64,000 nt of DNA, taken from contig DASXQR010000060.1 in the NCBI GenBank assembly GCA_036507075.1, forward strand, positions 1 to 64,000, given 5' to 3'. A program made the translations under genes and the position numbers. The stretch comes from Acidobacteriota bacterium. GTDB taxonomy: Bacteria; Acidobacteriota; UBA6911; JACQSX01. The notes under the pieces are model-generated. The model was not told the DNA's origin. It made no database searches and saw nothing but the letters and a program-made list of their open reading frames with translations. Shown here piece by piece: positions 2,683 to 40,779 of this stretch; positions within the stretch are counted from its first letter, which is position 1, and each line of letters opens with the position of its first letter.

Positions 2683-4377
2683 CTACCGCACACTCAGGCC
2701 CTTGTCCTCGTCTGCCAGATAGAACTTGTCGGCCGCCACATTCGCGAACTCCTGCTTTTTGCCGCTCGGCCAGAACAGCTCCACTCTGTCGACTTTGACG
2801 CTGCTGCCCAAGCCAAATACCAGCGGAAGCTGGCTCTGGCTGCAGTAGCTTGAACCGCTGTGCACGACCTGCTGCTGGGCGGTTCCGCCGCTCCAGATCT
2901 TTACCAGGGTTCCGATCCCGTCCCTGTTGCTGCGAGATCCCCGGGTCTGCACGCTCAACCAGTGATGGGCGTTGATTCTTCGATTCTCGAACAGATAGGC
3001 CGGACCGTTGTTGGTCGTGACCACCAGGTCCAGGTCGCCATCGCGGTCAAAGTCGCCGCAGGCGGCGCCGCGCGCCACTTTCGGCCTGGCAAATTCAGCG
3101 CCTGCCTGCAGCGCGACGTCGGTAAACTGCTTTCGAGAGCGGTTCCAGAAAAGATGCGGCGGCTGCGCGTAAGTGACACGCTTCTGAACTTTATTGATGT
3201 CGTTCTCCACATGCCCGTTGGCCACATAGATATCCGGCCGGCCATCCAGGTCGAAATCGAAAAAGAAGGTGGCAAAGGCGAGCGTGAGAAGACTTTGCTG
3301 CCCGATCGTCGTGCTGGGCGCCTCGTCCACAAACAGACCGTTGCCTTCGTTGTGATAAAGCGACAGCATTTCGTTTGAAAAATTTCCGATCACCAGGCTG
3401 AAGGCGCCGCTTCCGTCATAATCGCCGGCGTCGACGCCCATGGCCCCGCGCGCCACGCCTTCCTCGCTGTACGCGATGCCCGCCAGCATTCCCTTCTCGG
3501 TGAAGGTGCCGTTGCGATTGTTCTGATACAGCTTGTTCGGCTGCGTGTCATTGGCCACAAAAAGATCAGGCCAACCGTCGCGGTTATAGTCGACCACGCA
3601 CACGCCCAGTCCTTTGGACGTGGGATCTTCCAGGCCCGCTTTCCTGGTTGCATCTTCAAACTTTCCGTTTCCCAGGTTCCGGTACAGCCGCCCGCTGACA
3701 CCGTTATAGGACTCCGGCGTGCAGTAGGACTTGTTTATTCCGTCCAGCGTGCAGTAAATATCCTTTTCCGGGCTCCACGCCACATAGTTGGCCACGTAGA
3801 GATCCAGCCGGCCGTCTTTGTCGAAATCAAACCACGCGGCGCTGGTTCCAAAATCACGGCCCTTGAGTCCGCTTGCCGCCGTGACATCGCTGAAGGTCTC
3901 ATTGCCGTTGTTGCGGTACAGCCTTCCGCCGTTCAGGGCGGAAACGTAAATATCGTCGCGCCCGTCATTGTCGTAGTCGCCCACTGCGCAGCCCATGCCG
4001 TACAACTCCACGGCTAGCCCCGCCGAACGGGTCACGTTGACGAATTTTTTTCCGCCCACATTCTTGTACAGCGCCATGTAAGTCGGGCCCTTGCCGCTTC
4101 CGGGCCAGTGGGCGCTGTTGATCAGCAGAATGTCCTGAAAACCATCGCCGTTGAAATCCAGGAAGGCGCAGCCGCTTCCCATCGTTTCGGGAAGGAATTT
4201 CTTGCCCGCAGCGCCGGAATTGTGAGTGAACCGGATGCCCAGTGCCCGCGTGACGTCAACATATTTCACACTCAGCGGCGGAGCCGCCGCACTGGGGGGA
4301 TTCAGGCGTGTCGGTAAAAAAGGCGCTAAAACCAGCAAAGCAAGCAGGAGGCGATTGTGGGATTCTAACTTCAACAT
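2683..4377 (-). CDS. CRTAC1-family ASPIC/UnbV + FG-GAP repeat protein
   Basis: Signal peptide after MLKLESHNR, repeated DxDxDGxxD motifs (DFNGDGFQDI, DYDNDGRDDI, DFDKDGRLDL) and C-terminal GSSYCSQSQLPLVFGLG..VELFWPSG. Start moved to ATG 4377, just after the upstream gene's stop. Confidence 0.9.
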   Translation of the reverse strand: MLKLESHNRLLLALLVLAPFLPTRLNPPSAAAPPLSVKYVDVTRALGIRFTHNSGAAGKKFLPETMGSGCAFLDFNGDGFQDILLINSAHWPGSGKGPTYMALYKNVGGKKFVNVTRSAGLAVELYGMGCAVGDYDNDGRDDIYVSALNGGRLYRNNGNETFSDVTAASGLKGRDFGTSAAWFDFDKDGRLDLYVANYVAWSPEKDIYCTLDGINKSYCTPESYNGVSGRLYRNLGNGKFEDATRKAGLEDPTSKGLGVCVVDYNRDGWPDLFVANDTQPNKLYQNNRNGTFTEKGMLAGIAYSEEGVARGAMGVDAGDYDGSGAFSLVIGNFSNEMLSLYHNEGNGLFVDEAPSTTIGQQSLLTLAFATFFFDFDLDGRPDIYVANGHVENDINKVQKRVTYAQPPHLFWNRSRKQFTDVALQAGAEFARPKVARGAACGDFDRDGDLDLVVTTNNGPAYLFENRRINAHHWLSVQTRGSRSNRDGIGTLVKIWSGGTAQQQVVHSGSSYCSQSQLPLVFGLGSSVKVDRVELFWPSGKKQEFANVAADKFYLADEDKGLSVR

Positions 4378-4384
4378 TTTCTGT

Positions 4385-7279
4385 TCAATTCTGGTATCCA
4401 GGCGAGGCTTTGAGATCGGCATAATCGAGGGCATTATAATGAACGTGAATTGGCTGGCGCTCGTTATTGTCATGCAGGTTCTGCCGGCGATAGGCGCCGG
4501 TGATAAACTGCGCCGCTTCTTCAGCCTTAAAGCGGCGGTAAAGCTTCTGCTCGCGCAGCGCGTTGGCCTCATCGCCAATTCCCTGGTAACAGAGCATCAG
4601 GTTGTAGTGGGCCTGCAGATCCTCCATGTCTATCTTCAAAGCCTCCTGAAACTCGCCAATGGCACTCCGAAAATCACGCTTCAGGAAAAGGACGCGCCCT
4701 GCCTGGTTTCGCACCACGCGATCGCGCGGATATGCGGAAAGCGTCTTTCGAAAATGCGCCAGGGCTTCGTCATAACGCCCCTGGGTCTTCAGAGTCAGCC
4801 CGTAGAAAAAGTGGGCGCGCGGCAGCGCAGGGTCCAGTTGCAGTGCCTTTTTGAGATACTCCTGCGCGCCCTCCGGATTGCCTTCCTGCACCCGCACTCT
4901 GGCCACGTTGACCCAGCCGTCCACGTATTGCGGCTCAATCTTCGTGACTTGCTGGAACACCCACTCGGCTCCTTTCAAGTCTCCCTGGAGCAGCAGGCCG
5001 ATTCCAAAATCATTCCAGCGTTCGCGTTCCTGCAATCGGGCATCGGCGACCTGGTCGAGTTTCTTTGCCACCTGGAGGCTCTTCTGATCCTCGGCCATTA
5101 CCACGATCGGCAGGTCCGGAATCTCTTTCAGCTCTCCGCTCACGTTCGAAGTGTCTCCGGTAAATATCCAGCGACCGTCATCGTGCGCGGCCGTCAGCGA
5201 GAAATCCTTGTGCTCGGGATCCCGCACTCCGGCATAAGCCCACTGCGTGTTCCACCAGGCGAACTTGCGATAGTTCACTTTGGCGGTAAATCGGATTTTC
5301 CCGGAAACGCCTTCCGGGATTTTCACGTTGAAGTGCACTGTGTCGGCGGCTCCGGGCGGAATCAGGCGCACGTAAAGAACGGAACGGGTCGCCCAGGCGT
5401 TCCGCTTGGTGATCGGGTTGCCATGTTCGTCCAGTTGAAACGATTTGTAGAAATGCGCTCCCGGTTCGACCGGCCCTTTTCGGCCGTTGTCGGGCGGATC
5501 CTGCGTCATGCCGCTCCAATAGAAGACATTTCCCTTCTCATCTTCGCCTTTCAGCTCGGTCCAGACGTCGAACGCGTCGACCGTTCCGCCGGGAAAAAAG
5601 TGGCCGATGCCGCGCGTTCGTACTACCACATGCACATTGACGGTTTCACCGGCGCGCACGGATGTTCCCTCTTTCGGCAGTGGAGCCACAAGCCTTGACG
5701 GATCGGTGATGGACCCGGCCGCCGCCGCTCCGCCCAATGACTCTTCACCCACGGCAAAGGTGCTGGAGAGCGCTACGTCACCCTCACCGGAACGCCTGCG
5801 CGCCTCTTCCTTGACGCCCACCGGCGCCGTGCCTTGGTGCGTGATTCCAAAAATATCCACCGTGAGCTGCTTGGCCTTCAAGAATTCTTCCACCACCTTG
5901 AGCTGCTCGGAATCCCTGTTGGCGACCGGAAGCGCCGTGTTGGCCCCAGGGAAACGATGCGAGTGAACTTTGCCGTTCACGTTGCCCGCGTCCCTTGAGT
6001 CCACCAGCGGCATATGGCAGCCCACGCACTTCTTTGGCTCCTTGGGATAGTAGAAGGACCTGGCGCCCTGGCCGGATACCCCGCTCGCCTGCCAGTTGTC
6101 GTAATCATTGAATCCGCGCACCCAGCGATAATGGTTCACCGGCACATCGAGGTGGACCTTGTGGCAACTGGAACAAAACTCGGCCGTGTTGTTCCGCACG
6201 AAAGGCTTCAAGAAGGTGCGGCGATGCGGCTTGGGGTTGATGCGCACCACAAAATCGTGCACTCCCTTGATGATCGGATTCTTGCTCACGGCAAGATCAT
6301 GCAGCGGCGGATACTCGATCACGAACCCGCCGTTGCCCATCGAATTCTTCACCTCCACAATGCTGTGGCATGAAGTGCAGGCCAGGCCGGCCTGGGCCTC
6401 CGGAGTGTTGATCTGGGGCTTGATCGGCTTTTCAAAACGGCCGTTGAAAAAAACGGCGTGATCGTGGCACCCGGCACACCACTTTGACGGAGTGGTGCCG
6501 ACAACATCCTGCATGTACTCGACGGACTTCCGGTACCACTGGTTATTGAAGGACGAAAAATGATGGGCAGAGGAAAACCACTGCTTGTAAATATCCGCGT
6601 GGCATCCTGACGTAGCGCACGAGTCCGAGTGCATGAAAAAGTTCGATGGGATGATGTTGCGCGTGTTCGTGTCGGAACTCGACGGGAAGAACGGTCTTGC
6701 CGTTCCACCCGCCTCTTCTTCCATCGAGAGCGGCGTCTGGATCTCGTTGTCGATGCTGTCAACCGGATCAGGATAAAAGCGCTGATAGGTCTTCACTCCC
6801 GTCGGAAGCAGAATCCCCAGGGCCATCAGAGTAAGCACAGAAAGCGCAAACCGTCCTCCGGGGATGCCTCCCGCGGAAGCAAGGTTCCGCTCGGCCGCTG
6901 CAGACTCATCGGCCTGAGCGGGTTTGTCCCGGCGCATGAACTGGTGCAGGCTTGACGCCAGCCAGGTGACGCTGCCAGCTGTCGCCAGACCTATGTGAAC
7001 GTAAACGAGCATCATATTGGCCCGCAGTGCGCCCACAAAAGTAAGCCAGATTCCCAGCGCGCCTCCCAACAGGAAAAGCAGGTAGCCCGCCTTCTGAAGC
7101 GAAGTGGAACAGAGCCTTCGACCGACTATCACAAAGAAGGCCAGCAGCGCCCATCCGCCTACCACATGCACCAGCGTGTTTAACACGTAGAGGACGGTGG
7201 GATCCGTGAAGGCGAAAACGTAGCCACTGTTGAGAAGAAAGAGCGCCACAGCCAGTGTGGCCAGTCGCCTGAGCGTCAT
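4385..7279 (-). CDS. membrane-anchored multiheme c-type cytochrome with C-terminal TPR repeats
   Basis: N-terminal TM helices, heme motifs CAGCH, CTSCH, CSSCH, CVGCH plus atypical CATSGCH, and TPR helices (AHFFYGLTLKTQGRYDEALAHF). Start moved to MTLRRL at 7279 because the upstream codons are repeat-derived. Confidence 0.88.
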   Translation of the reverse strand: MTLRRLATLAVALFLLNSGYVFAFTDPTVLYVLNTLVHVVGGWALLAFFVIVGRRLCSTSLQKAGYLLFLLGGALGIWLTFVGALRANMMLVYVHIGLATAGSVTWLASSLHQFMRRDKPAQADESAAAERNLASAGGIPGGRFALSVLTLMALGILLPTGVKTYQRFYPDPVDSIDNEIQTPLSMEEEAGGTARPFFPSSSDTNTRNIIPSNFFMHSDSCATSGCHADIYKQWFSSAHHFSSFNNQWYRKSVEYMQDVVGTTPSKWCAGCHDHAVFFNGRFEKPIKPQINTPEAQAGLACTSCHSIVEVKNSMGNGGFVIEYPPLHDLAVSKNPIIKGVHDFVVRINPKPHRRTFLKPFVRNNTAEFCSSCHKVHLDVPVNHYRWVRGFNDYDNWQASGVSGQGARSFYYPKEPKKCVGCHMPLVDSRDAGNVNGKVHSHRFPGANTALPVANRDSEQLKVVEEFLKAKQLTVDIFGITHQGTAPVGVKEEARRRSGEGDVALSSTFAVGEESLGGAAAAGSITDPSRLVAPLPKEGTSVRAGETVNVHVVVRTRGIGHFFPGGTVDAFDVWTELKGEDEKGNVFYWSGMTQDPPDNGRKGPVEPGAHFYKSFQLDEHGNPITKRNAWATRSVLYVRLIPPGAADTVHFNVKIPEGVSGKIRFTAKVNYRKFAWWNTQWAYAGVRDPEHKDFSLTAAHDDGRWIFTGDTSNVSGELKEIPDLPIVVMAEDQKSLQVAKKLDQVADARLQERERWNDFGIGLLLQGDLKGAEWVFQQVTKIEPQYVDGWVNVARVRVQEGNPEGAQEYLKKALQLDPALPRAHFFYGLTLKTQGRYDEALAHFRKTLSAYPRDRVVRNQAGRVLFLKRDFRSAIGEFQEALKIDMEDLQAHYNLMLCYQGIGDEANALREQKLYRRFKAEEAAQFITGAYRRQNLHDNNERQPIHVHYNALDYADLKASPGYQN

Positions 7280-7310
7280 GATGCAGAGCAGTAATTGAAA
7301 TTGAGGACTG

Positions 7311-7361
7311 AAATTGGGGACTGTCCCCAATCTAAATTTAAAAGGGGGACTGTCCCCAATT
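7311..7361. repeat. GGGGACAGTCCCC/GGGGACTGTCCCC palindromic REP cluster (also ~19884-19969, ~40715-40773)
   Basis: Two to three copies of the 13-bp palindrome, or a close variant, in each of three intergenic spacers. Confidence 0.85.
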
Positions 7362-7389
7362 AAGCGCAGCAATTAAGCGCATCTCGAAC

Positions 7390-8439
7390 TCAGAACCGGT
7401 GCGAATAACCGATCAGAATGATGTAATCCGCGAACGCCGCATCTCCTTGACGACCGACAAGAATATCGGACACGCTTCGCGTACGATTACGAGAAATCGC
7501 AAATGGGACGCTGAATCCGACCGTATCACCACCGCGAGAGAGGACCCAACCCGGCTCCAGGGAAACCGCATAACCGGGACGCCGAAATCCATTGCTCTTT
7601 CCGATCAAATCTCTTGCCGGGATCCCTTCCCAGCGCCCGGCCATAGTAAGCGAGAATCCATGCTCGGGAAAGATGGGATAGGATACGCCCAGGCGCAAAA
7701 GATACTGGTCAGCCACCGACATGATGGCCTCGGAGGGTCGACCGCGAAAAGTAGGCACTCCGTTTGTGTCTTTCGGGTTAAAGAGGTAGGTCCCCGCCAG
7801 CGTTACCGTACTCCTCTTGATCCGCTTGAATGCCATTGTATCCAGTATGAAGCCGTAACCGCCATCACCTGCCTGGATCGATTGATCAACCGTGCGTACC
7901 TGCGGACCGGACGCCGTCAGAAACGTATCGCTATTCCCCGGCTCCCCCGTGGGAAACTTTACTCCCAAACCCACGGATATATTCTGCTGCGAGTGCGTTG
8001 ATGGGTTACCCAGCCAGGTTCTTCCCGACACAGCGAGGTCCCCGATTCCATTTGTTTCGGTGGTGAAGCGGCTTCCAGCGGACCGTTGCGACCGATCGGC
8101 GATGAGCAGCGGCATACTGACTGACATGCTTAACCGTTCATTAAAGGAATACGTGGCGCCGAAATCCATCAAGTGAATGTTATTGAGCACTTCACTGCCC
8201 TCACTCAGACGGTTCTTCTGCTCTACTTTTCCGACAAAGTGGCGGTCCGATCTTTGGAATCGATAGCCTGTAAAGACCTGCCATTTCCCTTTGGCGAGAA
8301 ACGGGCTCCTGTCTGTGCCAATCACGGGCACGCTTGCGCGGGCGGCGACTCAACCTTGGCCGGAGGCGGTATTGGAGAATCCGGCGAAAAGGAAAGCCGC
8401 AATGTTCAGGGACGCTAAGCCGCGACAGAAATGGGACAT
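7390..8439 (-). CDS. outer-membrane transporter-like protein (MetA-pathway/'transporter' type), putative selenoprotein with in-frame TGA at codon 30
   Basis: SD GGAAGGAGAGG precedes ATG 8439. Signal peptide MSHFCRGLASLNIAAFLFAGFSNTASG is followed by QG-TGA-VAARASVPV, in frame with the 313-aa ORF. The body has GIGDL and GLGVKFPTG motifs and a barrel-type terminal YSHRF. Confidence 0.8.
8310..8349 (-). promoter_or_regulatory. candidate bacterial SECIS element
   Basis: Hairpin GTGCC-CGTGATT-GGCAC whose G-containing loop starts ~23 nt 3' of the TGA at 8350-8352. Confidence 0.5.
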
Positions 8440-8512
8440 TGATCCTCTCCTTCCACGCGTCATGTTTTCTTGAACAATCTGAGGCAAACAACACCGATTC
8501 GGCTAAGCCGAA

Positions 8513-8528
8513 AGCATCTGCCGTGCCA
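8513..8528 (-). promoter_or_regulatory. sigma-54 (-24/-12) promoter
   Basis: TGGCACG-GCAG-ATGCT versus consensus TGGCACG-N4-TTGCW, ~75 nt upstream of ATG 8439. An NtrC-type activator is encoded divergently. Confidence 0.75.
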
Positions 8529-8696
8529 AAAAGGCCTCCAGCCGAGTTCGTCTTTGTAAATATCTGTCTATAAAAGATAAAAGCGACCCACGGTGGCCGC
8601 TCTTCAAGCCTAAGGTGTTCTCTTTTCTCATAATCCATAAGAACTCCCTTAAGCTAATGACAGTCTTTATGGAGCGAGTCTCGCATTGACAACCCG

Positions 8697-10364
8697 TTGT
8701 TTCTAAGAATATCCTCGATGAATCCTGAGCTCTTAGATCCTATGAACAGTTCGTTCCGTGTCACTGGGTGGTTTCAGACTCCGCACATAAAAATTACGAT
8801 CCTTCTTTTCCTGGCCGTTCTTGTGATCAATATTCTCGCGGTATGGGGAATCATTTCGGCCCATCGCAGTGCTCGATCTACCGCACTGCACGACCTGCAG
8901 CTTGAAACTTCAGCGCACGCTCGTTCTCTGGAAGCACTGCTTGCCTCGCGTCGCGGCGATGCTTTATTTCTGGCGCAGTCGCGGCCTTTCGCAAACGTTT
9001 CTTCCCTCTTCTCAAGCTCGAATCCCCTGATCCGCCGATGGGGTCGGATCGACCTGGAGGCATCCATTTTGCTTTTTATGGGAGCTCATCCTGAGATCGA
9101 GCGAATCGTCCTTCGCGATCCAAGCGGGCAACCATTGCTGGTTGGCGGGCGGCGGCAACAGTTTCCCGTTTTGCTGCCTGCTCAGAACGTCGCGTCAGAC
9201 GACCAGAACAGAACATTGAAGGGAATTTTCCCACTCGACACGGGTGGCAGACAGGAAGGTACGCTCGAAGTTCTACTTGGTGTACCCAAACTGCTGGCCA
9301 TTGCCGCTCCGGGAGTGAGATCCGGTTTTGCCATTCAGGAGCGGGCCTCAATCCAGCCTTCCTCTTCAATCACGGGTGACGTGATGGTGGTTTCAGCCCC
9401 GATTCGTGATTCAGGCTGGAATCCCCCCGTTCAGTGGACGCTGGTTGGACGCGAAAGCGAAAGCCGGCTGCTTCAATCCATCGCCGCTCTTGCCGTGCGA
9501 TACCGCACTACCGTAATTCTGAACCTGGTTGTTATAACGCTCGCCCTGCTGGTCGGCGTCGTCGCCTTCCATCAAGTTCGCAGCCGGGTGACGCTGGAGG
9601 AAGACGGGCGCCATCAGGCGGAACTTCGGAGGTTGGAGCACCAGTTAATGCACAATGAAAGACTTGCCAGCGTGGGAAGAATGGCCGCCGGCATCGCGCA
9701 TGAGATAAACAATCCGCTCGAAGGAATGGCAAACTATTTGAGCCTGATGGAAGACGACCTTCAGAGCGGCCATACCGCCGAAGCTCTGAAAATCAGCGGC
9801 AAAGTCCGAGAGGGACTGGATCGGGCCGCCGGCATCATCCGCCAGGTATTGACGTTCTCGGGACCCGGTTCGCTCCCCAGCGCTCCGGTGGAATTGAAAG
9901 ACGTGCTGCGTGAGACCGTGCAATTCGTCCGCTCCCACCCATCTTTCAGAAACGTAGACGTGAAGCTTGAAACTCCTCCCGATGAGCTTTGGCTCGCAGG
10001 CAACCGTATCACGCTCGGCCAGTTGTTTTTGAACCTGATGATCAATGCGTGCGAAGCCCAGCCCTCGGGCGGGAAGGTGGAAGTTAGATTGAGTCGCAGC
10101 GGACAAACGGCATCGATCACCGTATCGGACGAAGGACCCGGCATTCCGGCCGACGCTCTTACGCGCATATTCGAGCCGTTTTACTCGGCAAAAGGGTCCG
10201 CCGGGTTAGGCCTTTTTGTCTGCCACGGCATCGTCGGCCAGCATCACGGTCAGATCCGCGCCCACAACCGGCGCGACCGGGGAGCGATCTTTGAAGTTGA
10301 ATTGTCCGGACTTATTGCCGAACAGGCCACACTGAGGCAACTGGAACATCGGGCGGCGGTTTGA
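8697..10364 (+). CDS. membrane sensor histidine kinase (NtrB-like)
   Basis: Two TM segments, H-box ERLASVGRMAAGIAHEINNPL, N-box QLFLNLMINACEA, DEGPGI and GLGL. The start may be 8718 or 8742. Confidence 0.92.
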   Translation: MFLRISSMNPELLDPMNSSFRVTGWFQTPHIKITILLFLAVLVINILAVWGIISAHRSARSTALHDLQLETSAHARSLEALLASRRGDALFLAQSRPFANVSSLFSSSNPLIRRWGRIDLEASILLFMGAHPEIERIVLRDPSGQPLLVGGRRQQFPVLLPAQNVASDDQNRTLKGIFPLDTGGRQEGTLEVLLGVPKLLAIAAPGVRSGFAIQERASIQPSSSITGDVMVVSAPIRDSGWNPPVQWTLVGRESESRLLQSIAALAVRYRTTVILNLVVITLALLVGVVAFHQVRSRVTLEEDGRHQAELRRLEHQLMHNERLASVGRMAAGIAHEINNPLEGMANYLSLMEDDLQSGHTAEALKISGKVREGLDRAAGIIRQVLTFSGPGSLPSAPVELKDVLRETVQFVRSHPSFRNVDVKLETPPDELWLAGNRITLGQLFLNLMINACEAQPSGGKVEVRLSRSGQTASITVSDEGPGIPADALTRIFEPFYSAKGSAGLGLFVCHGIVGQHHGQIRAHNRRDRGAIFEVELSGLIAEQATLRQLEHRAAV

Positions 10365-10365
10365 A

Positions 10366-11754
10366 ATGATCAAGTTTCGTGGAACTGTTTTGATTGTCGA
10401 CGACGAGTCCTACGTAAGGGAATCGCTGGCGACCGTGCTGGCGCGTAAGGGCTACCAGGTACGGACGGCAGCCGGCGTCGAAGAGGCGCTGCGGGACGGG
10501 ATCCTGGAAGGGCTCGACGCCGTCATTACAGATCTGCGCATGCCGGGAACCGGAGGCCTGGAGTTGATCCGGAAGCTCGCCGCCGCCGCGCCCGGACTTC
10601 CCGTAATCGTGTTGACCGGCCACGGAACGGTTCCTTCCGCGGTGGAATGCATAAAAGAGGGCGCCGCCGACTACCTCCTCAAGCCTGCCAATCCGGAAGC
10701 TCTGCTGCTGATCCTGGAGCGCGCGCTGGCGCAAAGCACCATGCGGCGCGAGCTGGAATACCTGCGCGTGGGAAATCGCCGCGCCGCGCACCGCGAACCT
10801 CAAGGGGTCAGCGCCGGATGGAAGACTGTGATGGAAATGGTGGAAGCCGCCGCTCCCACCGATACGACCGTGCTGCTGCTGGGCGAATCCGGCACCGGCA
10901 AAGAGGAGGTCGCCCAGGTGCTGCACCGAAGGAGCAGCCGCGCCCGCTTTCCGTTCGTCAAGGTAAATTGCGCCGCCATCCCGCTCGAGTTGTTTGAAAG
11001 CGAATTCTTCGGCCACCGCCGCGGGGCCTTCACCGGCGCCACTGCGGACCGCGACGGCAGATTTCGCATCGCAAACAACGGCACACTTTTCATGGATGAG
11101 ATCGATTCGATGCCCGAAGCGGCCCAGATGAAAGTACTGCGCGTTCTTCAGGATGGAGTATTTGAGAGAGTGGGCGAAAGTCACCCCACCTCTGTGAATG
11201 TGCGCATCATTGCGGCCAGCAACTCCGATGTGGAAGCCGAAGTCGAGGCCGGCAGATTTCGAAGCGATCTTTTTTACCGCATCAACGTGATGACTATTCA
11301 TGTGCCGCCGCTGCGTCAACGACGCGAGGATATTCCGGTGCTGGCAAGCCTGTTTCTGGAGGAATTCTCCGCACGCATTCAAAAGCCTGTGCGCGCGATC
11401 AGTCCTGAGGCCATGAAGCATCTGGAAAGCTACAGATGGCCTGGAAACGTCCGCGAGCTTCGCAACGTGATCGAGCGCGCCGTGATCCTGGAGAAAACTG
11501 AAGGACTCCTGCCGTCAAGCCTTCCATTTAACCTGGTCCAGGAGGGCCGTCCCGAGCACGTCAACGACCTGAACCTGAGATCGCTGCTTGCCGCCGAAGA
11601 GCGCCGCGTGCTGCAGGAAGCGTTGCGGCGAAGTAAGGGGGTAAAGCGCGAGGCTGCGCGGTTGCTCGGAGTGGACGAGCGCAATCTGGGTTACTTCATC
11701 AAGAAGCATGGATTGCAAAAAGAATCTTCTCAAAAGCGCGATCTGCATAACTGA
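10366..11754 (+). CDS. sigma-54-dependent response regulator (NtrC family)
   Basis: Receiver domain (VDDE, TDLRMP), Walker A GESGTGKE, GAFTGA, WPGNVREL and C-terminal HTH. Confidence 0.95.
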   Translation: MIKFRGTVLIVDDESYVRESLATVLARKGYQVRTAAGVEEALRDGILEGLDAVITDLRMPGTGGLELIRKLAAAAPGLPVIVLTGHGTVPSAVECIKEGAADYLLKPANPEALLLILERALAQSTMRRELEYLRVGNRRAAHREPQGVSAGWKTVMEMVEAAAPTDTTVLLLGESGTGKEEVAQVLHRRSSRARFPFVKVNCAAIPLELFESEFFGHRRGAFTGATADRDGRFRIANNGTLFMDEIDSMPEAAQMKVLRVLQDGVFERVGESHPTSVNVRIIAASNSDVEAEVEAGRFRSDLFYRINVMTIHVPPLRQRREDIPVLASLFLEEFSARIQKPVRAISPEAMKHLESYRWPGNVRELRNVIERAVILEKTEGLLPSSLPFNLVQEGRPEHVNDLNLRSLLAAEERRVLQEALRRSKGVKREAARLLGVDERNLGYFIKKHGLQKESSQKRDLHN

Positions 11755-11760
11755 GAGGCT

Positions 11761-13509
11761 GTGAACAGAAAATCGCTGCTGATCATCCTGCTGCTGATCG
11801 CCGGTTGCCGCCCGGAGGGGCCTCCCCGGCAGGAAGCGACTCAGTCGTCCCAGCCCGATTCCATCAAGGAGGCGCCCCGCTCCACCCCGCAACAGACTGC
11901 GGTGATGGCCCCACCTCCATCTGAAGGCATTTTTACCAACATCACTGCAGCCGCGGGCATAAAGTTCTCTCACTTCAACGATGCTTCGGGCCGAAAGTAT
12001 CTGCCTGAGACGATGGGGTCAGGCGCGGCTTTCTTCGATTATGACGGAGACGGCAGGCCTGACCTGTACCTGGTCAATGGCTGCCCCATTTTGGGCGACC
12101 GGCACGGCGCCAAAAGCGGCGTCCTGTACCGCAATCTGGACGGGCTTCACTTCCAGGACGTGACTCGCCAGGCCGGACTGGCGGAAGTTTTCTACGGGAT
12201 GGGGGCCGCGGTGGGCGACATCGATAATGACGGTCACATCGACTTGTTTGTTGCCGGGCTTGACGGAGACCGTCTTTTCCGCAACCGAGGGGACGGAAGT
12301 TTTGAAGACGTGACCCAAAAGATGGGGTTGGCCGACCGAGGCTTCGGCTCCAGCGCCGCTTTCCTGGACTATGACAGAGACGGATACCTTGACCTTTTCG
12401 TCGGCCGCTACGTGCAATGGAGTCCAGCCACCGACATCGCTTGCAAACCCGACGGAGTACACCGCGTCTACTGCACTCCGGAAGTGTATCGCGGGCAGAG
12501 TAATCGCCTTTATCACAACATCCGGGGACGCAGGTTTGAAGACATCACCCGCAGCTCAGGTACTTATAATCCTGACGGAAAAACTCTGGGCGTGGCTATC
12601 CTCGACCACAACCGCGATGGATGGCCGGACATTGCTGTGGCCAACGACACGGCACGGAATTTTCTGTTTATCAATAACCGCGACGGTACCTTCTCGGAAA
12701 TGGGCGTCATCTCCGGGATGGCATACAGCGAATCGGGAGCGACGCGCGGCGGAATGGGAATTGATGCCGCCGACGTGGACGGCGACGGCTACACCGACAT
12801 CGTTATCGGCAATTTCGCCAACGAAATGTCGGCATTTTACCGCGGCTCTCAAAACGGCTACTACACCGACGATGCCGCCCAGGCAGGCATCGGCTTTCCC
12901 AGTCTGATGAGCCTGGCGTTCGGAACGCTCTGGGTCGACTTCGACAATGACGGATGGCTTGATCTGGTGATCGCCAACGGGCACATTGAACCTGATATTT
13001 CCAGCAGTCAGAAACTGCAAACCTATGCTCAGAAGCCTCAGTTTTTCAGAAATGACGGGCATGGGAACTTCGTCCTCGTCACTGGGGGGAAGGCCGGCCC
13101 GCTGGAAACTCCCATAGTGGGACGGGGTCTGGCCGCTGCAGATATTGACGGCGATGGCGATCTGGATCTGCTCATTACGCAAAACGGCCGGCCTCCCCGG
13201 TTGCTGCGAAATGATGCGGCACCTCACCGCTGGCTTCGAATTCAGTTAATCGGGAGTGCGAGCAACCGGACCGGATACGGAGGGACAGTTCGCGCACTCC
13301 AGGGCAGCCGAACCTGGACCCGGTCTCTTACCTCCGGACGTTCCTATCTTTCCGCTTCTGAGCCGGTGCTGAGCTTTGGTTTTGGGTCTCTTTCGAAACT
13401 GGACCGTCTGGAAATCACATGGCCCTCGGGAGCCGTGCAGACAATTCACAACCCCCCGCTCAATCAACTCCTGGCAGTGCGCGAACCACGACGCGGCAGT
13501 AGCCCTTGA
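11761..13509 (+). CDS. CRTAC1-family ASPIC/UnbV + FG-GAP lipoprotein
   Basis: Lipobox LIAGC, FG-GAP DxDxDG repeats and C-terminal GRSYLSASEPVLSFGFG..ITWPSG. Paralog of 2683-4377. Confidence 0.9.
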   Translation: MNRKSLLIILLLIAGCRPEGPPRQEATQSSQPDSIKEAPRSTPQQTAVMAPPPSEGIFTNITAAAGIKFSHFNDASGRKYLPETMGSGAAFFDYDGDGRPDLYLVNGCPILGDRHGAKSGVLYRNLDGLHFQDVTRQAGLAEVFYGMGAAVGDIDNDGHIDLFVAGLDGDRLFRNRGDGSFEDVTQKMGLADRGFGSSAAFLDYDRDGYLDLFVGRYVQWSPATDIACKPDGVHRVYCTPEVYRGQSNRLYHNIRGRRFEDITRSSGTYNPDGKTLGVAILDHNRDGWPDIAVANDTARNFLFINNRDGTFSEMGVISGMAYSESGATRGGMGIDAADVDGDGYTDIVIGNFANEMSAFYRGSQNGYYTDDAAQAGIGFPSLMSLAFGTLWVDFDNDGWLDLVIANGHIEPDISSSQKLQTYAQKPQFFRNDGHGNFVLVTGGKAGPLETPIVGRGLAAADIDGDGDLDLLITQNGRPPRLLRNDAAPHRWLRIQLIGSASNRTGYGGTVRALQGSRTWTRSLTSGRSYLSASEPVLSFGFGSLSKLDRLEITWPSGAVQTIHNPPLNQLLAVREPRRGSSP

Positions 13510-13605: not shown

Positions 13606-14343
13606 ATGATTTGGAAATTGTTTACAGGAACAGACCAGCCGACGCGCAGCCAGATTGACCGCCAGGTCAAGAAACTGGTGCATCCGCACGGCGAATCGGC
13701 AAACCGCATGGCCGCAGTGGAGCAATTGCTGGAGTGGAACACGCGGGAAAGCATAGCGGCCATCCTGAAGCGGTTCACAGTTGTCGCTTCGCCTGCCACG
13801 CTCGACCTGGAAGAAAAGCAGCACGTCTGCAATCTGCTGATTGGCCTGGGTCGGGAGATCGTCGATCCGGTGAAGGCATTTTTGCTGAGCGAGGTCCAGG
13901 TTTACTGGCCCGCCAAGGCTCTTCAGGGCGTCCTGAGCGCAGACGAATTCAAGGAGACGATGGCGGAAATTCTGCTGCACCTGCAGAACTCCTACGTGCG
14001 GGTTTCCGACCAGAAGCGCGACTTGATCCGTCAGGTCCACGGACTGGAGCATCCCAGGCTCTTTGAAATCGGCGAGAACTTCCTGACAGACGCGAGCGAT
14101 GATGTGCGTATCGCGGCGCTCGAGTATCTCTTCTCAGTACCCAACGATCATCGACGCTCGGCGATCCTGAACGCTATCTTTGCCGATGAGCAATCCGCCA
14201 GGTTCTGGCTGCGCTTTGCAGACTTGGCGGCGCAGAAAAACTGGAAAGTCCCTTCGGAGCACCGCGACAAGATGCAGAAGCAGTTGCCCCCCGAGTTTTA
14301 CATGACCTCGCATGGAGAATTGAAGCAGCGACCTAAGCGGTAA
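13606..14343 (+). CDS. HEAT-repeat-like hypothetical protein
   Basis: 245-aa helical ORF with HEAT-like NRMAAVEQL and DASDDVRIAALEYL. Confidence 0.7.
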   Translation: MIWKLFTGTDQPTRSQIDRQVKKLVHPHGESANRMAAVEQLLEWNTRESIAAILKRFTVVASPATLDLEEKQHVCNLLIGLGREIVDPVKAFLLSEVQVYWPAKALQGVLSADEFKETMAEILLHLQNSYVRVSDQKRDLIRQVHGLEHPRLFEIGENFLTDASDDVRIAALEYLFSVPNDHRRSAILNAIFADEQSARFWLRFADLAAQKNWKVPSEHRDKMQKQLPPEFYMTSHGELKQRPKR

Positions 14344-14482: not shown

Positions 14483-16831
14483 TCACCGCTCAAATTTCCC
14501 AAAGACGGCGTCTCTTCCCTTGGTCGAAAGTTCCTTCCGCAGATTTTCAACCGCTACGCGTACTACGTCCCGATGATGGACCTCGGGATGGGCGCCCGCG
14601 GTAATCTCCAGCCAGATCTGATGAATCAGATTGATATCTTCCTGCGTCAGGTTGGGGGCGTGCGCGCCCAGGTAGTACGTTCGAACGTTGCCCGGAGCCA
14701 GCACCACTTTAAGGGCGAGCTGCTTGCGTTTTCTGTCAGGAAGGCTCTCCCATATGGCGCCGATGCGCCGGGCCTGTTCGTCGGGACTCATTTTGGCGGA
14801 TGCGCCCGCCACAATTTCACTCACCTGCAGATTGTCGGCGGTCTGCGCAATAGCCTGAAAGATATCCGTGGTCGGCACCACCATCAGCTTGACCGGCTTG
14901 CCGTGCTTTTCGGAAATCGCGACGACTTTCGAGAAAAGAAGCTGTTCGTATTCGGAAAATACCGCCGCGCCGCCTGAGAAATCAATTCCTCCGGACGCGC
15001 CGCGCACCACCTTGGCAGTCATTACCACAACGTCCCGCAGCTCGGTGTTGACCCGGTTCAGCACCCAGTCCAGATGATCAAGCGTGTTGTAATCGCGCAC
15101 CGGCGCCAGAATTCCTCCCGGGCGGGTGTGCATCACTCCCGCATCCACTTCCTCCTTCTCGGAGAGGCGAAACTGGTCGGTCACCTCGCCCTTGCGCGCC
15201 CGCCTCCTCTCGTTTATTCGCTCCGATACGACAAACAGAGAAAAGAAGATCAGGGTGAAAGCCACGCCGCTGATGGTGGCGACCTCCTTGGTGATCAAAT
15301 TAATCACCGCAATGGAAATCAGGATCAGCGTGATGATCCCCAAGCCGAGCGGAATTTCAGTCCTGCCAACCGGAATATTCAGGGGAACTTTCCATTCGCG
15401 CGGCATCTTCGACCGGAAACGAAGCACCGTGGTGGCCAGCCCATTGAACACGAATGACCAGATCACGCCAAAAGCATAGGCTTCACCCAATGCGTAGGTA
15501 TTTCCCCGGGAAGCGATGATGGCGATCAACTGCAGAGCCACGACCATGTTGATCATTCGATACGTCGTGCCGTACTTTCGATGCGGGGCTCGGAACCAGT
15601 CTGTCAGGACACCGTCTTCGCTAACACGGTTAAGAACGCTGTTGGACCCGATCATTGCCGTGTTTACCGCGCCGGCAAGCATCAGAAACCCGACGATTAC
15701 GATAAAGGCGTTAAACAGCAGGCGCAGCGGAAGGGGTCCCACCAGGTGCATCGCGACTCCGCTGATCAGGTTTTCATAATATTGCGGTCTGACGGACTGA
15801 GGAATGATGGCATAAGCGAAAAATGAGACCAATGCGGTAAAGCAGATGGAGAACACAAAGATGACAATCGCCGCGCGGACCAGATTCTTATGCTTGGGAT
15901 GTTCCAGTTCCCGATAAACCTGCGCCAGGGACTCCTCGCCCGACATGGCCAGGATGGAATGCCCGAAGGCGATCAGGATCCCGATAAGCCCGAGGAGTGT
16001 GCCTGCGTTCGGCGGCAATCTAAATCGATGCTCTTCCCGCGCATTCTCCGATGAGGCGGTCAGGGTCGGTGTGTCCGGGTTGGCCTCGATGCGCAGCGCT
16101 CCGGGAGCAATCTTAGGCAACCAGCCTACCGCATCCGGATTGAAGGAAAGATTGCGGCCCACGGGCGCGGGAGGCAGGCGACGATTCTCCGGCCTTGAGA
16201 CGATCGTGAGGCTGCTCCAGAAGATCAGTATCACCACCATCGTCGTGGTCACATACATGATCTTCAACGCATCCTCTGAAGATTCGTGAATGCCCTTGGT
16301 ATTTCTGCGCCAGAAGTAGCACGTAATGAGAACCGCTATGACGGCTGCCAGGAGATTGAGGCTTTCTTCGGCGGGAGCCCAGCCGTATCCGAAATAGACC
16401 AGCGTGGCCTGCAGCAGCTTGACGATGTACTGGCCGGCGGCAACACCGGAAATCGGACCGGTGAGAATGTAATCAAACATTAAGGCTGAAACTGACACCT
16501 TTGCCAGAGTTGAGCCCATCGCTTCACGTACCACGCGATAAACACCGGCGCGCGTAAACATCGCACAAGACTCAACATAAATGGCTCGTACGGCCGTGGA
16601 GAAAAGCATCACGCCCAGAATGAACCATGGGGCCGACTGCCCTACCGCCTTTTCAGCTATTCCCCCGGCGTAAAAGGCCGACGAGCCCAGATCATTCAGC
16701 ACGATGGCGGCGGCGCGCCAAAAAGAAATAAAACTGAGCATGACGGTGGTCGCAACCACCACTTTGACTTTGGTTGAGGTTCGAGGCTGTGACTCTGCAG
16801 GAGGTGAGCCAGGCGCCGGAGTATCCACCAT
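14483..16831 (-). CDS. APC family permease with cytoplasmic USP-like C-terminus (YdaO/KimA-like), copy 1
   Basis: Multi-TM protein with AAAIVLNDLGSSAFY, LAMSGEESLAQ and LGEAYAFGV motifs and a soluble C-terminal domain. Confidence 0.85.
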   Translation of the reverse strand: MVDTPAPGSPPAESQPRTSTKVKVVVATTVMLSFISFWRAAAIVLNDLGSSAFYAGGIAEKAVGQSAPWFILGVMLFSTAVRAIYVESCAMFTRAGVYRVVREAMGSTLAKVSVSALMFDYILTGPISGVAAGQYIVKLLQATLVYFGYGWAPAEESLNLLAAVIAVLITCYFWRRNTKGIHESSEDALKIMYVTTTMVVILIFWSSLTIVSRPENRRLPPAPVGRNLSFNPDAVGWLPKIAPGALRIEANPDTPTLTASSENAREEHRFRLPPNAGTLLGLIGILIAFGHSILAMSGEESLAQVYRELEHPKHKNLVRAAIVIFVFSICFTALVSFFAYAIIPQSVRPQYYENLISGVAMHLVGPLPLRLLFNAFIVIVGFLMLAGAVNTAMIGSNSVLNRVSEDGVLTDWFRAPHRKYGTTYRMINMVVALQLIAIIASRGNTYALGEAYAFGVIWSFVFNGLATTVLRFRSKMPREWKVPLNIPVGRTEIPLGLGIITLILISIAVINLITKEVATISGVAFTLIFFSLFVVSERINERRRARKGEVTDQFRLSEKEEVDAGVMHTRPGGILAPVRDYNTLDHLDWVLNRVNTELRDVVVMTAKVVRGASGGIDFSGGAAVFSEYEQLLFSKVVAISEKHGKPVKLMVVPTTDIFQAIAQTADNLQVSEIVAGASAKMSPDEQARRIGAIWESLPDRKRKQLALKVVLAPGNVRTYYLGAHAPNLTQEDINLIHQIWLEITAGAHPEVHHRDVVRVAVENLRKELSTKGRDAVFGKFER

Positions 16832-17249: not shown

Positions 17250-19580
17250 TCATTCCTCAAACCGCTTGAACACTTCATCTCTTCCACGGGAACGAAGTTC
17301 CTGGTTCAACTCTTCAATGGCAAGACGAACCACATCCCGATGATGAATTTCCGGATGTCCCCCGGCGGTAATTTCCAGCCAGACGGAGTGAATCAGACTG
17401 ATGTCTTCCTGCGTGAGATTGGGAGCGTGGGCACCCAGGTAATAAGTGCGGACATTGGCCGGGCCCGAGACGATTTTCAAGATGAGCTGCTTTCTTGTCC
17501 TGGCCGGAAGCCCTTCCCAGGCGGAGCCCGTGCGACGGCCTTGCTCATCCGGGCTCATCTTAGCCGATGCGCCGGCAACGATTTCGGCGACCTGGAGATT
17601 GTCGGCTGTCTGAACAATTGCCTGAAAGATGTCCGTTGTTGGAACCACTACCAGCTTCACCGGTTTGCCGTATTTTTCAGCCATGGCAACCACTTTGGAA
17701 AAGAGCATCTGTTCGTAATCAGAGAACGTGGAGGAATATTCCGTTCCTCCGGTAGTGCCCCGGACCATCTTTGACGTCATGACCACAACGTCACGCAGGT
17801 CGGGATTTACACGGTTCAAAACCCAGGCTAGGTGGCCCAGAGTATTGTAGTCCCGCACCGCCACAAGGATGCCGCCCGGCCGGCACTGCATCACACGGGA
17901 ATCGACTACTTCCTTTTCGCTCAGGCGGAACTCATCGGTCATGGGCTTGTCGGCGCGGCGTTTTTCGTTGATTCTTTCCGAGACCACGAAAAGGCAGAAG
18001 AAAACCAGCGTGAAGGCAACACCGCTGATCGTCCCAACCTGCTTGGTGATCAGGTTGATTCCCGCGATCGACAGCAGAATCAGAGAAGTAATTCCGAGTC
18101 CCGCGGGGATTTCAGTCCTTCCAACTCGAATGTTAAAAGGGGCTTTCCATTCTCGCGGGGACTTATCCCTGAATCGAAGGATCAGAGTCGCGAGCGCATT
18201 AAATGTAAACGACCAAATCACGCCAAAGGCATACGCTTCACCGAGAGTATAAACGTCACCTTGTGAGGCGATGATCGCAGCCAGTTGCAGGATCACAATC
18301 AAATTGATCATCCGATAAGGAGTGCCGTATCTGCGATGCGGAGCGCGGAACCAGTCGGTCAACAAACCGTCCTCACTGACACGGCTAAGCACTCCGTGGG
18401 AACCGATAATCGCCGTGTTAACCGCACCCGAGAGCATGAGAACACCGACGGTCACGATGAAAGCGTTAAATAGCAGCCTCAGCGGCAGGGGACCAATCAG
18501 GTGCATGGCGATGCCGCTGATAAGGTTTTCGTAAAACTGGGGCCTGATGGATTGAGGGATAATGGCGTAAGCAAAGAATGAAACCAGCGAGGTGAACACG
18601 AGTGAATAAACGAAGATCACAAGACCTGCCCTGATCAGATTCTTGTGCTTGGGATGTCCCAGCTCCCGGTTCACTTCAGCCAACGACTCCTCGCCCGACA
18701 TAGCCAGAATCGAATGGCCGAACGCCATTAAAATTCCGATCAGAGCCAGCAGTGCGCCGCGCGTTGGATTCAGACCGAAGCGCCATTCGCCCTTGTCTTC
18801 GGGGGCTGAAACGGCGGCACTCGCCTCGGGCGAGATAGGATGGACAGCATCCGGTGAGATTTGTGGAAGCCATCCCACTGCATCCGCGCTGAACGACAGA
18901 TTGTCCGGTATCGGCGCAGGCGGCAGTCGTTGTGTCTCAGGCAGGGTAACGATGGTCGCCGTGCTCCAGGCGATCAGCAAGACCACCATCACGGTGGCCA
19001 CGTACATGATCTTCAGACCGCCGTCGTAAGATTCATAAATCCCTTTGTTGTGGCGCCACCAGAAATGCAGCGTCACTGCGATGGCAATCCCGGCCGCCAA
19101 CAGATTCATAGTGGCGACCGGAGGTTTCCACGGATGGCCCAGGTAAGTAGCTGTCTCGGACAGCAGCCTGACAATGTACTGTCCTGCCACTACTCCGGAA
19201 ATCGGACCGGTCAGGATGTAGTCAAACATCAGCGCCGAAACAGACACTTTGGCAAGGGTCGAGCCCATCGCCTGGCGCACTACCCGGTAAACGCCGGCCC
19301 GGGTAAACATCACGCACGATTCGACATACACTGCGCGCACAGCATATGAAAAGAGCATTACTCCAAGAATGAACCAGGGAGCCGAATGGCCAACGGCCCT
19401 TTCCGCAATACCGCCCGCGTAAAAGGCCGAGGAGCCCAGATCGTTGAGGACAATAGCGGCTGCGCGCCAGAAGGAGATGAAGCTAAGCAGTACGGTGGTG
19501 GCAACCACCACCTTCACTTTGGGCGAGCTTTTAGGCTGTGAGTCTGCGCGTTCTGAATCCGCTACCGGTGCATCCCCCAT
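17250..19580 (-). CDS. APC family permease with USP-like C-terminus (YdaO/KimA-like), copy 2
   Basis: Full-length colinear paralog of 14483-16831. Confidence 0.85.
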   Translation of the reverse strand: MGDAPVADSERADSQPKSSPKVKVVVATTVLLSFISFWRAAAIVLNDLGSSAFYAGGIAERAVGHSAPWFILGVMLFSYAVRAVYVESCVMFTRAGVYRVVRQAMGSTLAKVSVSALMFDYILTGPISGVVAGQYIVRLLSETATYLGHPWKPPVATMNLLAAGIAIAVTLHFWWRHNKGIYESYDGGLKIMYVATVMVVLLIAWSTATIVTLPETQRLPPAPIPDNLSFSADAVGWLPQISPDAVHPISPEASAAVSAPEDKGEWRFGLNPTRGALLALIGILMAFGHSILAMSGEESLAEVNRELGHPKHKNLIRAGLVIFVYSLVFTSLVSFFAYAIIPQSIRPQFYENLISGIAMHLIGPLPLRLLFNAFIVTVGVLMLSGAVNTAIIGSHGVLSRVSEDGLLTDWFRAPHRRYGTPYRMINLIVILQLAAIIASQGDVYTLGEAYAFGVIWSFTFNALATLILRFRDKSPREWKAPFNIRVGRTEIPAGLGITSLILLSIAGINLITKQVGTISGVAFTLVFFCLFVVSERINEKRRADKPMTDEFRLSEKEVVDSRVMQCRPGGILVAVRDYNTLGHLAWVLNRVNPDLRDVVVMTSKMVRGTTGGTEYSSTFSDYEQMLFSKVVAMAEKYGKPVKLVVVPTTDIFQAIVQTADNLQVAEIVAGASAKMSPDEQGRRTGSAWEGLPARTRKQLILKIVSGPANVRTYYLGAHAPNLTQEDISLIHSVWLEITAGGHPEIHHRDVVRLAIEELNQELRSRGRDEVFKRFEE

Positions 19581-19968
19581 AACAGCAGATTTATTCTATT
19601 CACACTGGTGAGCAATAGCCAACGAAGAATTGCAAGAATCCGCAAAAGACGGCGTATATTGGAAGAAACAGGCAAAAACAAGCAGTGGCTGGGCTCCCAC
19701 CTGCACAAAGGCCGGTGGAGGGCAGAGTTTTGGACATTTTTGGAGAGACGGCCCGATGGCCGTCTCGGGCGAAGTCGACTGCAGCCATCCTCCGACTCTC
19801 CCCGAGACGTCCCCCAGGACGTCTTTCCGCGGCGCTGCAAACGACCTTTTTTCGCGCCTTCGCGGTTAAGCTTTCAGCGAATCAAAAATGGGGACAGTCC
19901 CCTTTTTTTAGTCAAAATGGGAGTCAAATGGGGACAGTCCCCAATTTAAAATGGGGACAGTCCCCAAT

Positions 19969-40668: not shown

Positions 40669-40779
40669 AAGCAGGGAGGGGTCAGGTCTTGAAATTTGAA
40701 TTCGAGGAAAAAGAGGGACAGACCCCAATTAGGCAATTAGGGGGTAAATTTAATTGGGGTCTGTCCCCATTTTTCCGCT

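Follow-up and report, generated by a model that had tools for sequence, protein, structure and literature searches.

We analysed a stretch of 64,000 nucleotides from an Acidobacteriota bacterium (GenBank assembly GCA_036507075.1, contig DASXQR010000060.1, positions 1 to 64,000; hereafter the window). Six genes between positions 2683 and 13509 encode an outer-membrane barrel with a predicted selenocysteine (Sec), a multihaem cytochrome with a tetratricopeptide repeat (TPR) arm, two CRTAC1-like proteins (asp1 and asp2), a sensor histidine kinase and an NtrC-type activator. This locus consists of three units, namely the barrel, the cytochrome-asp1 pair and the kinase-activator-asp2 operon, together with a sigma-54 promoter element. 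It is best seen as a regulon of usually scattered members that happen to sit together here. Its parts are also found together elsewhere in the phylum and probably constitute an unstudied import-and-redox system. Tentatively, and with slightly less than even confidence, we read it as a sigma-54 regulon by which a small substrate would be taken up and converted by redox chemistry in the periplasm.

The barrel gene (7390..8439, minus strand) begins with an ATG at 8439, preceded by a strong ribosome-binding site recognised from the sequence (8444..8452), and ends with a stop at 7390. Its open reading frame (ORF) encodes a signal peptide, Gln-Gly, an in-frame TGA at codon 30 (8350..8352) and then 319 residues, which would place the predicted Sec at residue 3 of the mature protein. 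Local searches gave 108 matching barrel alleles; after removal of 4 without the motif and 9 duplicates, 95 distinct alleles were compared. At the position of the UGA, 76 carry TGA and 19 Cys, and the upstream frame is open in 74 of the 76. A hairpin of the selenocysteine insertion sequence (SECIS) type follows the UGA (8315..8331, minus strand); its stem has 5 bp, and its 7-nt loop carries G at the second position and lies 23 nt behind the UGA. The hairpin was detected in 72 of the 76 TGA alleles and in none of the 19 Cys alleles, with mean energies of −11.8 and −6.8 kcal/mol, respectively. In the TGA alleles 93% of the cells are paired and two-sided changes occur at five of seven pairs, while slid control positions pair in only 18–54%. 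Of 500 shuffles, none equalled the alleles on four of the five measures used, and 47 did so on the remaining one. Furthermore, the codons beneath the hairpin are fixed (Pro CCC in 72/72, Val GTG in 66/66), whereas neighbouring Ala and Arg codons vary. A bacterial SECIS model given in the accessible part of PMC13188914 has a loop of 3–9 nt, a stem of 4–16 bp, a G in the first two loop positions, a distance of 16–37 nt from the UGA and a free energy of at most −7.5 kcal/mol. The geometry of the barrel hairpin (7-nt loop, 5–7 bp, G at position 2, 23 nt from the UGA) lies within these ranges. The window genome encodes selA, selB, selD and a tRNA-Sec (selC). All 14 other sampled TGA-barrel genomes have selA and the six barrel genomes lacking selA contain only Cys forms, an association that gives modest support for Sec. 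An earlier note on this DNA had described the protein as a putative selenocysteine-containing outer-membrane protein. The TGA/Cys alternation, the covarying hairpin and the sel genes bear this out, and judged by sequence the barrel almost certainly carries Sec at the UGA.

Table 1 of the 2026 review PMC13188914 lists 119 prokaryotic selenoprotein families; as far as the accessible part of that source goes, the barrel family described here is missing from them, and the outer membrane is represented by an MtrB/PioB-type barrel and a TonB-dependent receptor. No NCBIfam model for the family was found, nor any mention of it in the accessible part of bioRxiv 2022.07.06.499078. Literature searches for selenoproteins combined with the Acidobacteria outer membrane, for UGA barrels and for PF13557 returned no relevant match, subscription journals and supplements being outside their scope. 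The family could already sit in candidate lists of deep-learning selenoprotein surveys. Its profile matches 374 clusters at E 1e-30, and databases mostly hold it in a shortened form, the N-terminal Cys motif being kept in 10 of the 119 best homologues. The window genome contains a second barrel paralogue (contig C132:44088-45143, 37% identical) with Q-G-TGA and a variant form of the hairpin beneath a different peptide sequence, which is not located near genes of the locus. The selD gene of the same genome (contig C59:4836-5753) also has an in-frame TGA and a downstream hairpin.

The barrel is predicted to have the COG4313/FapF fold. The structural model (predicted local distance difference test, pLDDT, 86) matches Pput2725 (4RL8) best (Z 23.8, root mean square deviation (rmsd) 2.7, 254 aligned residues) and FapF next (Z 21.1, rmsd 3.4, 252 aligned), and the barrel profile matches FapF at E 1e-8. 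A PF13557 match at E 0.01 was not obtained for the window barrel; several homologues carry PF13557 on record. The lumen of Pput2725 is plugged on its periplasmic side by the 14 N-terminal residues of the protein (accessible part of PMC4493636). The alignment with 4RL8 starts at model residue 36 against 4RL8 residue 2, and since residues 1–42 of our model lack confident structure, the placement of Sec in a plug is borrowed from Pput2725. The window barrel shares its predicted fold with COG4313/PF13557 channels such as Pput2725 and FapF (PMC4493636, accessible part). It is only 13–15% identical to them, adds the N-terminal Q-G-Sec/Cys motif and is known here from sequence and model.

The cytochrome (4385..7279, minus strand, ATG at 7279) has an N-terminal membrane domain, five c-haem motifs (four CxxCH and one Cx4CH), a beta-rich and likely Ig-like domain, and a C-terminal TPR arm. 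Hydropathy indicates four membrane helices, with a fifth, weaker one likely; the membrane-anchored multihaem-TPR protein of the earlier note is confirmed. Two His residues of the membrane part are near-invariant (91 of 92 rows each). A distant paralogue carries four membrane His, and for this reason the membrane domain likely binds one haem b rather than two; this assignment rests on the two near-invariant His. Pfam gave no match of note for the membrane domain, and a PF13435 match was found for the protein. The haem-domain profile matches PDB entry 5ZE8 at E 2.7e-6, covering haems 1–3 and profile positions 26–129 of 287 only, and shows weak similarity to MccSep at haem 1 (E 0.015). A single-sequence PDB search with the N-terminal half gave no matches, and the best 60 PDB matches listed for the full-length profile comprise only TPR proteins. 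As the single-sequence AlphaFold model reaches a pLDDT of only 36.5, the 5ZE8-like fold is proposed from sequence. Invariant His, Tyr and Lys residues exceed the needs of five-haem ligation and suggest a catalytic site. The cytochrome itself has no UGA, although 39 of 40 genomes with a close cytochrome homologue carry selA. The MccSep family model NF040886 was not listed for the cytochrome at E 1. Literature searches for Acidobacteriota multihaem proteins with TPR and sigma-54, or for ASPIC/UnbV with cytochrome, gave nothing relevant, again outside subscription journals.

The gene downstream, asp1 (2683..4377, minus strand), encodes an FG-GAP propeller with an ASPIC/UnbV domain according to Pfam. 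A wider scan yielded at least 79 cytochrome loci, of which the best-scoring 79 were compared. In 72 of these the cytochrome gene is immediately followed by an asp1 orthologue; three are cut by contig ends and four lack it. A complex of cytochrome residues 530–963 with asp1 was predicted with a score of 0.83, compared to 0.00 for the best of three controls. In a benchmark, which applies only roughly to runs with own alignments, 116 of 157 solved pairs attained this mark, as did 2 of 215 mismatched ones. Contact agreement between runs was at least 88%, the partner pLDDT was at least 91, and almost all predicted contacts lie on the TPR helices. At the 47 interface positions asp1 orthologues are 64% identical versus 57% elsewhere; for asp2 the values are 36% versus 46%, and for other paralogues 21% versus 37%. 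According to the models, the cytochrome very probably forms a complex with asp1. ASPIC/UnbV proteins had been proposed as partners of the cytochrome, and for asp1 synteny and the predicted complex agree with this. The face of asp2 that would bind the TPR arm has diverged, and asp2 as a second subunit on the same face was dismissed on these sequence identities. PDB searches with the cytochrome and asp1 sequences revealed no comparable TPR-propeller complex, TPR folds as such being common there. Human CRTAC1 (PDB 9ETN) and bacterial ASPIC/UnbV proteins share the propeller and the C-terminal ASPIC domain (E 2e-20). In contrast to these, asp1 belongs to a dedicated orthologue group, is a predicted binder of a cytochrome TPR arm and has a duplicate linked with a sensor kinase. 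Acidobacteriota are rich in CRTAC1/ASPIC proteins; no function for the bacterial ones was found in the literature outside subscription journals.

Divergently oriented are the genes for a kinase (8718..10364, start 8718 or 8742) with a dCache-like periplasmic domain, HisKA and HATPase domains, an activator (10366..11754) with receiver, sigma-54-activating AAA+ and Fis-type helix-turn-helix domains, and asp2 (11761..13509), a predicted lipoprotein; all are on the plus strand, with gaps of 1 and 6 nt. The genome contains rpoN. Kinase and activator score below all NCBIfam equivalog cut-offs listed. Among 136 further genomes of the class, 27 encode an orthologous kinase. In 21 of these asp2 follows the activator, in one it is absent and in five the contig is cut, so that the operon is intact in 21 of 22 scorable relatives. 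The gene facing the kinase in the class is a cytochrome in eight cases (one of them a distant paralogue) and a barrel in two, and two further kinase loci have a cytochrome at another place within the locus. The remaining ones face TonB-type, redoxin, NMT1-type ATP-binding cassette (ABC) or RidA-like genes; redoxin genes face the regulator in genomes G304 and G348. Outside the class, kinase, activator, cytochrome and asp1 stand in a row in G037, G204 and G276, the last with the barrel in front. In G005 a Cys barrel faces the kinase and in G285 a Sec barrel converges on the activator. At some kinase loci we noted other neighbours: selA lies 9–10 kb from the cognate kinase in two genomes of one family (G146, contig C101; G186, contig C132), an ABC transporter adjoins the kinase in L127 (10581-15263, with an NMT1-type binding protein and a TauE exporter) and L130 (184-2615), and a carbon-nitrogen hydrolase gene lies between asp1 and kinase in L254 (3771-8084, genome G058).

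A quick tree, calculated without bootstrap and including two asp2 rows of odd composition, placed asp1 and asp2 in one clade apart from 22 paralogues of the same genome (Shimodaira-Hasegawa-like approximate likelihood ratio test, SH-aLRT, 100). Within it asp2 (SH-aLRT 99) nests beside asp1 of G285, G204, G037 and G276. This clade is a link between the regulator operon and the cytochrome that does not depend on synteny, and the sequences suggest that asp2 is a duplicate derived from an ancestral kinase-activator-cytochrome-asp operon. Asp2 belongs with the regulator rather than with the cytochrome unit.

The −24/−12 element lies at 8514..8528 on the minus strand. It is the only match in the window, compared to 0.38 expected, and 32 of 100 shuffles also had one; as the element alone is not beyond chance, its support comes from conservation. 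At the 28 kinase loci (window included) the pattern occurs 13 times on the divergent strand and three times on the other strand, with a background of 1.9% per 450 nt. It was present at 10 of the 12 loci whose facing gene is a cytochrome or a barrel, and upstream of 11 of 81 barrel genes (one antisense). By eye, no activator-binding repeat was evident in the intergenic alignment. Judged from these sequence patterns, the kinase-activator pair likely controls the promoter at 8514..8528. This agrees with the earlier proposal of a cognate two-component pair, both in synteny (21/22) and in the divergent sigma-54 site (13/28 vs. 3/28). Divergent layouts are common among NtrC-type sigma-54 systems. 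AtoS/AtoC, ZraS/ZraR and NtrB/NtrC-type systems share the domain architecture and the divergent −24/−12 promoter; in contrast to them, the pair described here forms its own sensor-domain group, present in 17 of 300 genomes of the phylum.

Co-occurrence was assessed in these 300 evenly sampled Acidobacteriota genomes, one of which (G023) is unpublished and contributes to counts only. The barrel was found in 24 genomes (14 with TGA), the kinase in 17 and a close cytochrome in 40. The kinase coincides with a Sec barrel in 10 of 17 genomes (0.8 expected) and with the cytochrome in 13 of 17 (2.3 expected). The cytochrome is present in 12 of 14 Sec-barrel genomes from nine families (1.9 expected, 2.4 within selA genomes) and in only 2 of 10 with a Cys-only barrel. 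Nine genomes of six families have all three, and in 10 of 17 genomes no more than about 10 kb separate the kinase from a barrel or cytochrome. The claim that the six genes constitute a self-contained module was not supported: the layout did not turn up in any other genome examined, and the cytochrome pair mostly stands apart, with a barrel in 2 of the 79 best-scoring loci and a cognate kinase in 2. In the genomes examined, neighbourhood conservation applies to cytochrome-asp1 and to kinase-activator-asp2, and does not extend to the full six-gene order.

Several observations weigh against reading the locus as an uptake-and-conversion regulon. The exact six-gene layout occurred in no other genome examined, G276 having five of the six genes in a different order, and the majority of barrel loci have other neighbours. 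No barrel match, profile searches included, was obtained in 26 of the 40 cytochrome genomes, and for 7 of 17 kinases neither barrel nor cytochrome lies on the stretch fetched or the same contig. Related genomes are not independent, so the p-values of co-occurrence are overstated. The sigma-54 pattern is missing at 15 of 28 kinase loci, and in its strict form it was found at none of 78 best-scoring cytochrome loci within 450 nt upstream. Between barrel and cytochrome lie 110 nt with a pair of repetitive extragenic palindromic (REP)-like repeats forming a strong hairpin (7316..7357, z −4.5), which may uncouple the two genes. The minus-strand run behind the −24/−12 promoter exists as to genes and site, but is split by this gap. 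Both the hairpin and the promoter pattern were defined after the first alleles or data had been viewed. With regard to Sec, the hairpin of the window itself has −7.3 kcal/mol over 30 nt (z −0.4), compared to the criterion of −7.5. As selA is present in 229 of 300 genomes, its occurrence in 14 of 14 is by itself weak (p 0.02), and five of the six selA-negative barrel genomes belong to one family. Residues 1–42 of the barrel model, including the presumed plug, are below a pLDDT of 50. In the cytochrome only the haem-motif Cys are invariant, and neither an in-frame TGA nor a conserved extra Cys or Sec like that of MccSep was found.

In the proposed mechanism a small molecule would enter the periplasm and be sensed by the dCache-like domain of the kinase, perhaps with the asp2 lipoprotein as an accessory. 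The activator would then fire the sigma-54 promoter and switch on barrel and cytochrome. Sec on the periplasmic plug segment of the barrel could act as a soft nucleophile or ligand, and the Sec-plugged channel would admit or trap the substrate. The cytochrome would hold the asp1 propeller on its TPR arm, and this complex may oxidise or reduce the substrate against the quinone pool, electrons passing between quinone, one haem b and five c haems. On balance we slightly favour the view that the barrel works with the cytochrome. The weakest step is the nature of the substrate: a sulfur species or a soft metalloid is a doubtful guess, made because of Sec chemistry, the kinship to 5ZE8 and MccSep (PMC11976967, accessible part) and the link to selA. 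Hints are provided by 5ZE8 and MccSep as the nearest solved haem domains, and by the redoxin and NMT1-type ABC genes which the regulator faces elsewhere.

It is possible, but in our view rather unlikely, that the regulator controls only the cytochrome-CRTAC1 pair and that the Sec barrel is a separate channel drawn behind the promoter in some lineages. The rarity of barrels at cytochrome loci (2/79) and their lack in 26 of 40 cytochrome genomes would fit this explanation, as would the varied barrel neighbours, the REP-like hairpin and the TonB-type, redoxin, ABC and RidA-like genes in the divergent slot. Nevertheless, the barrel adjoins the cognate regulator in G120, G318, G005, G276, G285 and contig L227, in three different layouts, and the cytochrome accompanies 12 of 14 Sec barrels versus 2 of 10 Cys-only ones. 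Other barrel settings were also seen. In L146 (318-14058; genome G304, same family) a TonB-type receptor, a vWA protein, a Sec barrel, an alginate-export-type porin, the cytochrome and asp1 stand in this order. In a soil group of 11–12 of 72 barrel loci (L152, L154-L157, L160, L165, L167, L169, L175, L194) the barrel lies beside a NarL-type regulator and a large propeller sensor, family names being assigned by sequence reading.

A role in sensing and repair of redox or metal stress in the envelope, with the Sec plug as sensor or metal trap and the cytochrome supplying electrons to envelope thiols instead of to a substrate that is respired or imported, appears improbable. Redoxin genes facing the regulator (G304, G348), a conserved His in the first strand region of the barrel and a second Cys nearby (TGA alleles, 43/76; full-length Cys representatives, 39/69) speak for it. 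However, a second Cys is missing from the mature chain of the window barrel, the sensor of the kinase is similar to small-molecule domains of the dCache type, and the surplus invariant His, Tyr and Lys of the cytochrome would suggest a catalytic site. That the TGA is a true stop or lesion in a broken or headless barrel and the cluster a chance gathering of abundant gene types is highly improbable: 26 ASPIC ORFs in the genome and a promoter and hairpin not significant in the window alone would allow it, but TGA occupies one codon in 76 alleles with the upstream frame open in 74 and Cys in the rest, and the covarying hairpin, frozen synonymous codons, asp1/asp2 clade and synteny contradict it.

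Among described systems, the uptake-and-conversion regulon proposed here resembles the Geobacter extHIJKL set (ExtI porin, MccSep/ExtKL; accessible parts of PMC13510729 and PMC11976967), which likewise has a channel gene near a periplasm-facing five-haem cytochrome and Sec in the set. MccSep reduces polysulfide using a distal Cys and Sec (accessible part of PMC13510729). In contrast, Sec is predicted here on the barrel and not on the cytochrome, which lacks a conserved extra Cys for His/Cys ligation, is anchored in the membrane, likely binds haem b and has both a TPR arm and a CRTAC1 partner. The barrel has the predicted COG4313 fold, and a sigma-54 two-component pair is attached. Membership of the cytochrome in MccSep/ExtKL was dismissed, as it lacks the extra distal Cys and Sec despite five c-haem motifs. 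By analogy, we propose that the locus works like the ExtI-MccSep set without belonging to it. The penta-haem cytochrome c552 of Thermochromatium tepidum (5ZE8) and the PHC family share five c haems and haem-domain homology, but are described as periplasmic (PMC11976967, accessible part), whereas the window cytochrome adds a membrane domain and TPR.

The adjacency of cytochrome, barrel and regulator is no assembly artefact, since one public contig from a soil run spans 6198-9743 with two differing letters and a 16-nt insertion in the repeat; this run may be the window's own source. The copy number of the REP-like element at 7353 differs in this contig. The palindrome has 70 exact copies genome-wide, with intergenic clusters in the window at 7316-7357, 19890-19965 and 40756-40768. 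The best-matching public runs are soil metagenomes, and the closest relatives of the cytochrome are Acidobacteriota, which points to a soil acidobacterium as the likely host. The sole RNA run matched yielded short contigs only, one of 180 nt on the barrel. All six genes were confirmed in the window, and their orientations, the short gaps in the regulator operon and the −24/−12 site are as the earlier note had described them. The cytochrome ATG has no obvious ribosome-binding site. A sigma-70-like promoter candidate for the regulator operon (8686..8715, plus strand) matches the consensus at 10 of 12 positions; in this region, sites of this kind are no more frequent than chance predicts (3 versus 4.0 expected). 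Longer TTG starts were dismissed at 7372 for the cytochrome (crossing the variable repeat), at 4578 for asp1 (overlapping the cytochrome) and at 8697 for the kinase (falling inside the sigma-70-like candidate). Of the ASPIC/UnbV genes of this genome, three own-genome paralogues are TPR-ASPIC fusions. Behind asp2, 13606-14343 (plus strand) encodes a 245-amino-acid protein with a weak HEAT-repeat match; L131 and L149 have a homologue of it some 4 kb past asp2. In the window this gene is followed by two tandem amino-acid permease paralogues of about 780 amino acids (14486-16831 and 17253-19580, both minus strand; PF13520 for the first).

A more specific version of the uptake-and-conversion regulon, to which we assign a low probability, is a split selenoenzyme. 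Here a Sec-less, MccSep-like cytochrome would use the Sec of the channel plug to capture an S–S or metalloid substrate at the pore, from where it would be handed to a cytochrome-CRTAC1 complex fed by quinol; one sigma-54 switch would control the set, and the accessory of the sensor would be a duplicate of the propeller. If this is true, Sec in a channel plug would have a transport role for the first time, and a bacterial CRTAC1 protein would receive its first function. The locus adds a link between barrel, cytochrome and regulator, the asp1/asp2 duplication and a predicted TPR-asp1 interface. Thereby one bacterial CRTAC1 protein is given a predicted binding partner, both unstudied units, the barrel and the cytochrome pair, gain a candidate regulator, and knowing what the kinase binds should give a lead to the substrate used by pore and cytochrome.

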